A stretch of DNA of 58,025 nt from a virus (Duplodnaviria > Heunggongvirae > Uroviricota > Caudoviricetes). Numbering within the stretch: the stretch's first letter is position 1; each line of letters starts with the position of its first letter. The position numbers and the translations under genes are program-made. The notes under the pieces were generated by a model. The model was not told the origin of the DNA. It ran no database searches and worked only from the letters and a program-made list of their open reading frames with translations. The stretch is taken from IMG/VR virus record IMGVR_UViG_2859821903_000003, positions 1 through 58,025 of that record; one strand, 5' to 3'. Of the stretch, positions 45,767 to 48,570 are shown in pieces.

Positions 45767-45834
45767 CGCAGCCATTCTACTTAACTCACGTCACCTCGCC
45801 AATATGAAATCAATCAGAAAGGTGATCCATAAAA

Positions 45835-46521
45835 TCACTCCTTCTCTTCTTTTCCGTAGTGGAGTTGGCCAATTTTGATAAGAGGGCGTCCCTGAGATTT
45901 GCGGTGTAGATTGGTATCGCGCAGAGAATACACACAGCCACAATATTCCTGCTGATAGAATTTTTCGCGCTTGCTGATTTCAATCATACGGGACGAGCCG
46001 CCCTGCTTGCGCCAGTTATAATCCCAGTACACCATACCCGGATAATGCGCAACAGCTCGCCGCCCACACTCGTTAACCTGCTGCATATTTTTCCAGCGTG
46101 AAATGCCCAGTGAACTACTGATCACACTGAAACCATTTTCAGCAGCGTACAACGCTGTCCGCTCAAAACGCATGTCAAAACACATGGTACAACGGATCCC
46201 CCTCTCAGGCTCCCATTCCATTCCTTTGGCACGTTCAAACCAGTTGTCGGTGTCGTAATCAGCATCGATAAACGGCACGCCGTGTTGTTCAGCAAAGCGA
46301 ATATTTTCATCCTTACGAATTAAATACTCTTTCTGAGGATGAATGTTCGGGTTGTAGAAAAAGATGGTGTAGTCGATTCCCGAGGCCTGAAGCGCCTCCA
46401 TCACTTCACCGGAACATGGAGCACAGCAAGAGTGCAGTAGTAGTTTGTTTGCCCCGTTTGGGAGCTCCAATTTAGGCCGTTTGAAATCAGCAATAGTCAT
46501 AAATATTTTTATTGGGGTCAT
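45835..46521 (-). CDS. DUF208/QueH-like protein (epoxyqueuosine reductase family)
   Basis: Cysteine motifs [29 protein letters not shown] and YCGCVYS match the QueH pattern as I recall it; preceded by about 360 bp of AT-rich DNA. Confidence 0.55.
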
Positions 46522-46881
46522 GAAAATAGCACAGAGTGTAGCATCAGAGCAGGGCTATCGGGAATATATGTCTAAATCTGGTAATATCTGGTTTTGACGC
46601 AAAGCGGACAACCACGCTGGCTCTACCCTGCGCCATGAAAATGTCAATTCACATCTGAACTAATGCTCTTTAATCTAGTAACGTCTAAAATACCTAACAT
46701 TTCCTTGATAAAATGCCAGTACACGCTGCATAGCTTCGCTCTTCCGGCACTCGCGACAGATTATGTTCATACGCCTGTCGTAGCGGCGTATTTCTCCGTC
46801 GGGTAATGTCCAGATAAGGCCCGGATCAACCACAACAGGTTTCTTTACCTTTGCCCTTGAGAGTTTTTTGCGAGCATTTTG

Positions 46882-47115
46882 CTAGTCCTTACGCGCCTGT
46901 TCAGACGGGAATAACCCGTAACCAGAGTCGTATACATCGCCACTGGCAACCAGCTCTCTGGCAAGAACGCTCATCAGATATCTTGTCGCACCTGTCTTGG
47001 CTTCCAGTTGCCGTAACGTCTCGCGCCCACTCCGGCGTACTAGCTCAACAACCTGCCCTTTAATTTTTTCCCGCTCTTCTTGTGTAAATACTTTTGCCAT
47101 AAGCGCCTCCGGCAA
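46882..47115 (-). CDS. Hypothetical small protein (77 aa)
   Basis: ORF coupled to the upstream 256 aa gene. Confidence 0.3.
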   Translation of the reverse strand: MPEALMAKVFTQEEREKIKGQVVELVRRSGRETLRQLEAKTGATRYLMSVLARELVASGDVYDSGYGLFPSEQARKD

Positions 47116-47886
47116 TCACTTTTCCGATACAACACGGCGGGAAGAATCAGTAATCTGTCGAACAATATCCCGGTGCTTGTTCAGCTCCCGCAGCGCGGCG
47201 CAGACTCGCTCCCACTTCTGAACATCACTTTTCGCCCTGCGCAGCGCCAGGTTTGCCCTGCGCAGGGACGGAAAAATCAGCTCATCTGCTTGCGTTTCGG
47301 TAAACGATGGCAACGACTGCACAATGTCCGCCACAGTTTCTGTTTTAATTTCTTCCTGTGTTGCGGCTTCCCGGCCTGGTAACGCAGCACCTGCTGGCTG
47401 AGGAAAGGCCTTACCATCACTTTCCGTTACCAGCGCGGCTTTCGGCTCTGCTGGTAAATTATCGCCCGGCATGCAGTAACGAAATTTACCGTTCTGATTA
47501 ACGCGTGCCAGCCGCCCCGTTGCGGTTACCACCGCCAGCGTGGAAGCAACCTTGCGAGTACTGACACCGAACTTACCCGCCAGTTCCTCACACGTTTTAG
47601 CCCCATCCTGACCGATAAACTCAATCATCATGTCTGCGGTAACTTTTTGTTCGACCTCCCCGGTCAGCATATCCTGTGCTTCAGATTTTACTGGCCGCTC
47701 TTCGGTTACCCGGGATTCACCTTCGCCAGCCAGAAACCAGGTGTGACCAGTTTTATCAACGACGCCATTTCTTTTGAGTTCCCACAGCTCGTTGACAGCC
47801 TCTTCACGACTGATTCCAAGGCGAGCTGCCACCACATGTGAAGAGGCTTTTTTCAGTGCTTTCAGTGCGTCAGATACGGTTTCCAT
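47116..47886 (-). CDS. Hypothetical phage protein with N-terminal HTH-like segment (256 aa)
   Basis: N-terminal LKKASSHVVAARLGISREEAVNELWELKR; lies downstream of the DnaC-like gene. Confidence 0.35.
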   Translation of the reverse strand: METVSDALKALKKASSHVVAARLGISREEAVNELWELKRNGVVDKTGHTWFLAGEGESRVTEERPVKSEAQDMLTGEVEQKVTADMMIEFIGQDGAKTCEELAGKFGVSTRKVASTLAVVTATGRLARVNQNGKFRYCMPGDNLPAEPKAALVTESDGKAFPQPAGAALPGREAATQEEIKTETVADIVQSLPSFTETQADELIFPSLRRANLALRRAKSDVQKWERVCAALRELNKHRDIVRQITDSSRRVVSEK

Positions 47887-47907
47887 TAAAATTTCCTCCG
47901 GACAAAA

Positions 47908-48498
47908 TTACTTCACAACCCTCATATTGCTGACATTTGGACGCCAGCTATCCCAGTTAAACGTCACCCATCGACCACCGTTCATGGTCATGCGGTCCAT
48001 AATCCTCTCACCAAGAAGCGTACTCATTGCGGCATGATTCAGGTTTGTTAACATCCCGACACTGCACAGTGATGCTGTCCGGCGATCAATTATCTGGTGC
48101 AATACCACCTGCTCGTTTTTCGTCTCCCGCTGAACGCCTATTTCATCCAGGACCAGCAAATCAACCCCGCAAAGCTCCTGTAAAAATTTTTCCCCGGATT
48201 TGCCGTTGTCGTAGCTGTCATGCAACACGCTCATGACGTCAGACACGGTGACGATAATCACGCTGCGCCCCTTCACCATCAGCCGGTTGCCCATCGCCGC
48301 TGCAAGGTGATTTTTCCCGGTGCCGGTTTTACCGCTGAACACAAAATTCGTGCACCCGGTCATCAGTTCGTCAGCTATGGATTTGGCCTGGCTCAGCGCG
48401 TATTTTTGCCCGTCGTTCTGCACCTGATAATTTGCAAACGAGCATTTGCTGTGCAGAGGCTGGATGCCCGAACGATTCAGGATTTTTTCCACCCGCAA
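47908..48498 (-). pseudogene. DnaC-like replication protein, N-terminally truncated next to IS629
   Basis: 196 aa aligning with the C-terminal ~200 residues of DnaC (Walker A GKTGTGKNHLAAA, LLVLDEIG); about 50 N-terminal residues missing. Confidence 0.75.
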
Positions 48499-48570
48499 CT
48501 GGCGATTCTGGCGGTTTGAACCGCCCCGGGAATCCTGGAGACTAAACTTCCTGAGAAAGAGGTAAACAGG

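Follow-up and report, generated by a model that had tools for sequence, protein, structure and literature searches.

How does a gene for a tRNA-modifying enzyme come to lie between two copies of an insertion sequence (IS) in a lambdoid prophage, and what could it do there? The question is raised by queH in the IMG/VR virus record IMGVR_UViG_2859821903_000003 (Caudoviricetes), of which positions 1 to 58,025 were analysed and are referred to here as the window. The original prediction, made from the letters alone, placed a QueH-like gene in a 2.75-kb segment bounded by two direct IS629 copies and suggested that it may be a moron affecting tRNA or DNA modification. Taken as a whole, our data make it probable that the gene is a captured housekeeping queH, which would permit vitamin B12-independent maturation of queuosine (Q) in lysogens, and that the IS629 copies represent later hits during decay of the prophage.

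Queuosine synthesis passes through epoxyqueuosine (oQ), which is made by QueA at position 34 of the tRNAs for Asp, Asn, His and Tyr. Vitamin B12 is not made de novo by E. coli or Shigella. The pathway is present in both E. coli and Shigella, and the reduction of oQ to Q is performed by QueG or QueH (PMC9508795). Passages of PMC6850298 and PMC4646009 that cite Frey 1988 state that this conversion needs B12 in E. coli and Salmonella, and that oQ stays in B12-free glucose-salts medium. QueH has been described as the cobamide-independent alternative to QueG (PMC6461909), and Staphylococcus aureus has both enzymes, which are expressed differently (PMC13443448). Furthermore, loss of tgt lowers the pathogenicity of Shigella according to a passage of 10.1101/2020.09.01.277731.

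The QueH protein of the window

The gene in question was located as follows.

45835..46500, minus strand: queH, 221 amino acids; the open reading frame is readable back to 46521 (228 codons); full-length PF02677 match and match to structure 7lc5

The family assignment of the original prediction, which had named a QueH/DUF208-like protein, was confirmed by the profile search that it had proposed. The PF02677 (QueH) profile spans positions 1-174 of 175 in the reading frame at 45835-46521 (minus strand; E 1.1e-65, 221.5 bits compared with a curated cutoff of 23.5), and the solved QueH of Thermotoga maritima (7lc5) is matched as well (E 8e-22). The protein is identical to RefSeq WP_000150294.1, which carries the RefSeq/PGAP name 'epoxyqueuosine reductase QueH', and to the annotated gene in the prophage loci L001 (APEC O18) and L006. 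The ATG at 46500 is almost certainly the real start of the 221-residue protein, because RefSeq uses the same start, the seven codons upstream of it vary among alleles, and an ATG further upstream is missing from one of them. No NCBIfam model matched the window QueH, hence the PGAP name must derive from another rule, and this result is uninformative either way.

The motifs that are invariant in the family, HxCCAPC, NPNIxP, EY, RCxxC and CGC, are all kept in the window protein. It was aligned with five chromosomal and four distant homologs as well as T. maritima QueH, and every invariant column of the 11 sequences is retained in it (HxCCA, NxNIxP, EY, RCxxC and CGC). The CCAPC form occurs in the window QueH and in all other aligned sequences except one distant homolog (CCAAC) and T. 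maritima QueH (CCAPD), where Asp13 of 7LC5 stands at the place of a cysteine in the window protein. The cysteines of the solved structure align with six of those in the window QueH. Judged from this alignment, HxCCAPC, NPNIxP, RCxxC and YCGC would be the metal-ligand and active-site motifs. The window protein is a genuine member of the QueH family and has the look of a working epoxyqueuosine reductase, of the iron-sulfur type that needs no cobalamin.

Distribution, origin and selection

The gene was found in 995 of the 5,426 complete E. coli genomes (about 18%), almost always as a single copy per genome. The gene queG for the core host enzyme occurs in 5,426 of 5,426, so that queH is always an addition to queG. 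Relatives of queH are also carried by 189 viral contigs of IMG/VR and by the isolated temperate phage HannyBb. In view of the 995 genomes and the RefSeq name, the initial statement that such an enzyme is unexpected in a lambdoid replication region cannot be upheld. A queH gene in a lambdoid prophage is already known, being annotated in hundreds of genomes, and the sequence feature itself is ordinary. The labels on the phage side lag behind the bacterial-side PGAP name: the family phrog_3217 is listed in PHROGs with 'unknown function', and the HannyBb gene (GenBank PP925841, CDS0046) as 'hypothetical protein'. Carrying the name QueH over to phage annotation is a small, concrete gain.

The nearest proteins outside E. 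coli, with 79-86% identity, are the QueH proteins of Erwinia, Gibbsiella, Photorhabdus, Providencia, Proteus, Sodalis, Rahnella and others. In all three genera that were checked, the chromosomal queH is a core gene, situated between purL and glrK in Erwinia, beside tmcA and purC in Providencia and beside benE in Photorhabdus. The window protein shares its full-length domain with these housekeeping enzymes, among them that of Proteus; however, the window copy is borne by a temperate phage or prophage, and its host possesses QueG besides. The nucleotide similarity between phage queH and the chromosomal homologs (76%) is confined to the coding sequence. It is most likely that the gene has been captured from an enterobacterial chromosome by lambdoid phages of E. 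coli and Shigella. Among five phage or prophage alleles, the pairwise ratios of nonsynonymous to synonymous substitution rates (dN/dS) range from 0.02 to 0.09 (about 0.04), with dS up to 0.45. These values indicate that queH is kept under strong purifying selection while moving among phages.

Genomic context of queH

The segment that holds queH contains four genes in one orientation.

45767-48516, minus strand: segment with genes for a DnaC/YdaV-like loader, DUF1627, DUF977 and QueH
47908..48516, minus strand: DnaC/YdaV-like helicase-loader gene, truncated at its 5' end by IS629 copy 3 with loss of 46 codons (NF009043, positions 53-248 of 248; compared with L001 9142-9888)
47116..47886, minus strand: intact DUF1627 gene (PF07789, E 1e-97), with one amino acid difference from L001
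46675..47100, minus strand: DUF977 ('Ren-like') pseudogene in two open reading frames, PF06163 on both halves; phrog_142 'Ren-like exclusion protein'; compared base by base with L001

The inspected queH contexts comprised prophages of APEC O18, O7:H15 ST70, 95-3322, DLL7555 and O157:H7 (Z1615) as well as phage HannyBb. In every one of them queH comes directly after the DUF977 gene, with which the early-right replication module ends. The order in APEC O18 is cro-like, YdaT, O-like helix-turn-helix protein, DnaC-like, DUF1627, DUF977, QueH, hokD, DUF968, RusA and Q. The replication module before queH is either of an O-like-only or of a YdaU/YdaV type, and the genes downstream of queH vary as well (hokD; Hok with Doc toxin; an NgoMIV-type restriction-modification pair; or a DUF1971 gene). 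The prophage locus L013, which has the same cI and cro as the window, is without queH. Shared homology between contexts begins 49-116 bp upstream of the queH ATG and stops within 3-6 bp of the stop codon; in the window, these limits of the cassette correspond to 46549/46616 and 45829-45832.

The variable presence, the tight cassette boundaries and the site at the junction of replication and nin regions support the view that queH is an accessory, moron-like gene beside a hypervariable cargo slot. With regard to its accessory behaviour, the proposal of a moron was therefore well founded. In these features, queH resembles other morons and cargo genes that lambdoid phages carry at the replication/nin boundary, whose neighbouring slot takes up hok, Doc or restriction-modification genes, and it shares a host origin with the auxiliary metabolic genes of phages. 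It differs from the typical lambdoid moron in that a generic scan called neither a promoter nor a terminator of its own. The boundary corresponds to the position of ren in lambda. As a separate observation, the slot after queH or DUF977 in L003-L006 and L013 is a cargo hotspot, filled with hokD, with Hok and Doc, with an NgoMIV-type endonuclease accompanied by a Dcm methyltransferase, with DUF1971 or with an ead/Ea22-like run.

The DUF977 gene of the window has been inactivated by a TGG to TAG nonsense change at 46883 (codon 73, 46882-46884). A frameshift had been considered as the lesion and was rejected, since the segment has no insertion or deletion relative to L001. Of the 21 substitutions that separate the whole segment from L001, 18 fall in this gene and are clustered in two patches, a pattern suggestive of a mosaic or recombined allele. 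The stretch of about 360 bp beside queH that had been described as AT-rich proved to be neither AT-rich nor a spacer. Positions 46522-46881 have a GC content of 45%, compared with 47% for queH and 52% for the window, and about half of them form the 3' part of DUF977.

These findings bear on the question whether queH is of any use to its carriers. The gene could encode an active enzyme and still be a neutral hitchhiker, redundant with QueG and without benefit to phage or host; queG is universal in E. coli, queH occurs in just 18% of the genomes, and no phenotype is known. However, a dN/dS of about 0.04 at dS values of up to 0.45 speaks for long maintenance by selection in the phage pool, and the same queH cassette persists across differing replication and cargo modules. 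Neutral carriage thus appears quite unlikely.

The context bears equally on the proposal that QueH acts on DNA, in a 7-deazaguanine modification that would shield the phage genome from restriction. We know of no 7-deazaguanine DNA-modification cluster in phages that has QueH among its members. There is precedent in that queuosine-pathway enzymes are used by phages for DNA modification (PMC10516641), and the clusters of DpdA with QueC, QueD, QueE and related enzymes have borrowed from this pathway, as is the case with phage QueH. However, QueH is not mentioned as a DNA-modification enzyme in the same paper, and the defining partners of such clusters are absent from the inspected contexts: neither a DpdA/TGT-like transglycosylase nor a gene for preQ0 or preQ1 was found in the annotated early regions of seven contexts, the late regions of which were not examined gene by gene. 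Furthermore, the protein shares 79-86% identity with housekeeping tRNA enzymes and is subject to strong purifying selection, and the search for defence systems with PADLOC gave no match for the window QueH. An effect on DNA modification, as it had initially been considered, is hence not borne out by the gene content of these early regions, and we regard this role as very improbable.

Proposed role in lysogens and expression of queH

The captured housekeeping gene, carried by lambdoid phages in a fixed slot between the DUF977 gene and the hok/nin cargo, would act in the lysogen. There, phage QueH would catalyse the last step of Q-tRNA synthesis (oQ34 to Q34 in the tRNAs for Asp, Asn, His and Tyr) without B12, and the prophage would free the Q maturation of its host from the cobalamin supply that QueG needs. 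QueG (YjeS), which depends on cobalamin and an Fe-S cluster, is predicted to perform the same reaction on tRNA; however, its fold and cofactor are unrelated to those of QueH, and its gene is core whereas queH is accessory. The situation would be comparable to that of MetE and MetH, where MetE relieves the B12 need of MetH. To our knowledge, QueG is among the few B12-dependent enzymes of E. coli and the only one known to lack a B12-independent substitute on the chromosome. This substitute may be provided by the prophage gene, which about 18% of the strains carry.

A candidate promoter lies in the upstream part of the cassette.

46535..46543, minus strand: TGCTACACT, extended -10-like motif 35 nt upstream of the ATG at 46500, candidate queH promoter

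The motif is conserved in six of seven phage or prophage contexts; L003, with an unrelated upstream flank, nonetheless has TGCTACACA. The nine bases of TGCTACACT recur in Erwinia, at a similar distance upstream of the chromosomal queH. It is conceivable, and put forward here as a tentative proposal with rather low odds, that the captured queH and a promoter of its own are carried by lambdoid phages for lysogenic conversion, as a gene that makes Q-tRNA maturation B12-independent in E. coli and Shigella. If this were true, about a fifth of the E. coli strains and some Shigella would decode NAU/NAC codons with full Q34 in B12-poor niches. Non-lysogens would halt at epoxyqueuosine in such niches, and Q-dependent stress and virulence phenotypes could be affected.

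Several points weigh against a role of queH in B12-independent Q maturation. We know of no phenotype that separates oQ from Q, and since the host already has QueG, the benefit of queH may be small. A literature search on QueH in phages and prophages found no paper that discusses a prophage QueH and no experiment on any such protein. The generic scan for sigma-70 and consensus promoters called neither a promoter upstream of queH nor a terminator after it, leaving TGCTACACT uncalled, and the -10-like motif of the L003 allele is degenerate (TACACA). In the window, IS629 copy 3 severs the early-right operon from the promoter PR, so that expression of queH would depend on its own candidate promoter. 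Two of the four genes in the 2.75-kb segment are already dead, and the queH of the window may be silent and intact merely by chance.

The orientation of queH and the outcome of the scan can also be read in favour of a different function. As part of the early-right operon, queH could be transcribed from PR together with the replication genes and serve lytic growth by tuning the decoding of NAU/NAC codons in late genes. The gene is oriented as this operon, no clear promoter or terminator of its own was found in the scan, and tRNA genes near Q in lambdoid prophages suggest that translation is tuned there. However, these prophage tRNAs (Arg, Arg and Ile2; Gly and Thr) are not Q substrates, a single lytic cycle probably allows limited renewal of the tRNA pool, and the -10-like motif is common to phage queH and its chromosomal homolog in Erwinia. 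Hence, a lytic role seems unlikely, and action in the lysogen is preferred here.

The IS629 copies and the history of the segment

A comparison of the window with itself by BLAST revealed three IS629 copies, all on the plus strand (33861-35169, 43205-45766 and 48517-49826), the second of which is interrupted by another element.

33861-35169, plus strand: IS629 copy 1, with a normal 3-bp GAG target duplication
43205..44246, plus strand: left part of IS629 copy 2, without duplication and without loss of flanking DNA
44247..45495, minus strand: IS911 (1249 bp), nested in IS629 copy 2 (split at 44246/44247), with an AGG target duplication
45496..45766, plus strand: right part of IS629 copy 2, continuing past IS911
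48517..49826, plus strand: IS629 copy 3, without target duplication and associated with a deletion of about 1.6 kb; ALIL frameshift element
49827..49954, minus strand: cro remnant of the P22_Cro type (PF14549, positions 2-41 of 60), with its 3' end removed by copy 3; the cro of L013 encodes 71 amino acids

The self-comparison and the reading of the flanks bear out that the 2.75-kb segment is bounded by direct IS629 copies that lack target duplications. The flanks are ACC and CGC at copy 2 and GTT and TCC at copy 3, neither pair being duplicated, and the GAG of copy 1 served as internal control. An exchange of flanks between copies 2 and 3, which could explain the absent duplications, was rejected as there is no matching pair among ACC, CGC, GTT and TCC. 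The junction sequences of IS629 in the window are CCGGGGCGGTTCACGCAGCCATTCTAC and CTGGCGATTCTGGCGGTTTGAACCGCCCCGGG.

The absence of a duplication at copy 3 is related to the deletion of about 1.6 kb. Compared with the IS-free L013, the DNA lost there comprises 88 bp of cro, a ydaT-family gene, a 963-bp O-like gene and 46 DnaC-like codons. An IS-adjacent deletion or recombination between two former copies would explain this structure. The blunt insertion of copy 2 is unusual for an element of the IS3 family; copy 1 and the nested IS911 have normal 3-bp duplications. In neither copy 2 nor copy 3 does the missing duplication point to a mobilised segment.

An association of IS629 with queH, as implied by the description of an IS629-flanked gene, did not withstand comparison with other genomes. 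The segment is collinear and gapless, at 99.2% identity, with IS-free lambdoid prophages in 518 of the 5,426 complete E. coli genomes. Window positions 41343-43204 and 45767-48516 map to 5145-7000 and 7001-9750 of L001; since these are contiguous, copy 2 represents a simple insertion that neither added nor removed flanking DNA. The empty site, in which CAAGCACC is directly followed by CGCAGCC, is present in 53 fetched loci. The IS-flanked segment itself was sought elsewhere, as had been proposed, with 200-bp probes of both IS junctions, which found no place with at least 80% coverage in the complete E. coli genomes (Shigella not being searched separately); the GTDB representatives, scanned for exact matches, did not contain the copy 2 junction either.

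One IMG/VR contig, L033 (IMGVR_UViG_2526164619_000006), shares the copy 2/queH junction and nothing else of the arrangement. Its IS629 is uninterrupted by IS911, hence the IS629 insertion is older than the IS911 hit and common to a lineage. The upstream breakpoint of L033 differs, window position 47498 being joined to an inverted 41342. A second contig predicted to come from the same genome as L033 (L091) encodes a queH with 98% nucleotide identity and has no IS629 junction, the DNA about its insertion site not having been inspected.

The same comparison decides on the idea that queH entered the prophage within a composite IS629 transposon, with the 2.75-kb segment as its cargo. Two direct copies do bracket the segment, as such a transposon would require. 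However, in the IS-free prophages of the 518 genomes the segment adjoins, without gap or overlap, the DNA that lies left of copy 2, the outer flanks ACC (left of copy 2) and TCC (right of copy 3) do not form a duplication, and in L033, the sole other contig where the copy 2 junction occurs, the segment ends elsewhere on its far side. Given this collinearity, the empty sites and the unique junctions, a composite transposon was rejected as hardly credible. Our comparisons indicate instead that IS629 copies 2 and 3 are later, unrelated hits that neither delivered nor mobilised queH. In this sequence of events, queH would have been captured before the IS629 insertions; copy 2 then split the hok transcript from its probable promoter, and copy 3 took away about 1.6 kb from cro to dnaC. 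The IS629 framing of queH is a matter of incidental decay, and the sequence feature itself matters little.

The hok locus and decay of the prophage

The DNA left of copy 2 and the short piece between copy 2 and queH belong to a toxin-antitoxin module.

42880..43204, minus strand: hok/mok/sok type I toxin-antitoxin locus (PF01848; Rfam RF01794 sok at 43205-43030)
45774..45802, minus strand: promoter-like TTGGCG-17-TAGAAT, probable promoter of the hok mRNA, severed from hok by IS629 copy 2

The 66-bp piece with the promoter-like sequence belongs to the hok module and not to the queH module in other phages. Copy 2 sits at the first base of the RF01794 model (43205-43030, minus strand), 7 nt downstream of TTGGCG-17-TAGAAT, and thereby cuts off the transcript of the hok toxin from what is probably its promoter. 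Chromosomal hok loci of E. coli K-12 have reportedly been inactivated by IS elements as well (Pedersen and Gerdes, 1999). There, too, the IS lies immediately beside hok and cuts off expression signals; in the window, by contrast, the element is IS629, which entered at the 5' end of the hok leader and produced no target duplication.

Further insertions point in the same direction. The IS911 of the window is 100% identical to copies on plasmids of Shigella boydii and S. dysenteriae. This identity and the combined content of IS629, IS911 and IS600 point to a Shigella-type genome, and it is under such an IS load that the prophage is decaying. Two inverted IS600 copies were found about 19.5 kb apart, at 52759-54022 and 33206-35781. 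The former interrupts the dicB/ydfD early-left region. The latter is split by IS629 copy 1 with its GAG duplication and occupies the place in which one would look for lysis and head genes, flanked by a truncated gene for a nanS-like esterase on one side and by tail genes on the other. This arrangement suggests that a large part of the late region has been deleted or rearranged.

Finally, some RNA features were recorded. A tRNA cluster at 37374-37890 comprises an Ile2-type tRNA with CAU anticodon (called Met by ARAGORN), Arg-UCG and Arg-UCU, together with the small RNA STnc100. As in lambdoid prophages of the Stx type, it lies downstream of the region for antiterminator Q, and none of its tRNAs is a queuosine substrate. 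In addition, the Rfam IS009 RNA family matched at 20897-21095 (225 bits), near the presumed end of the prophage.

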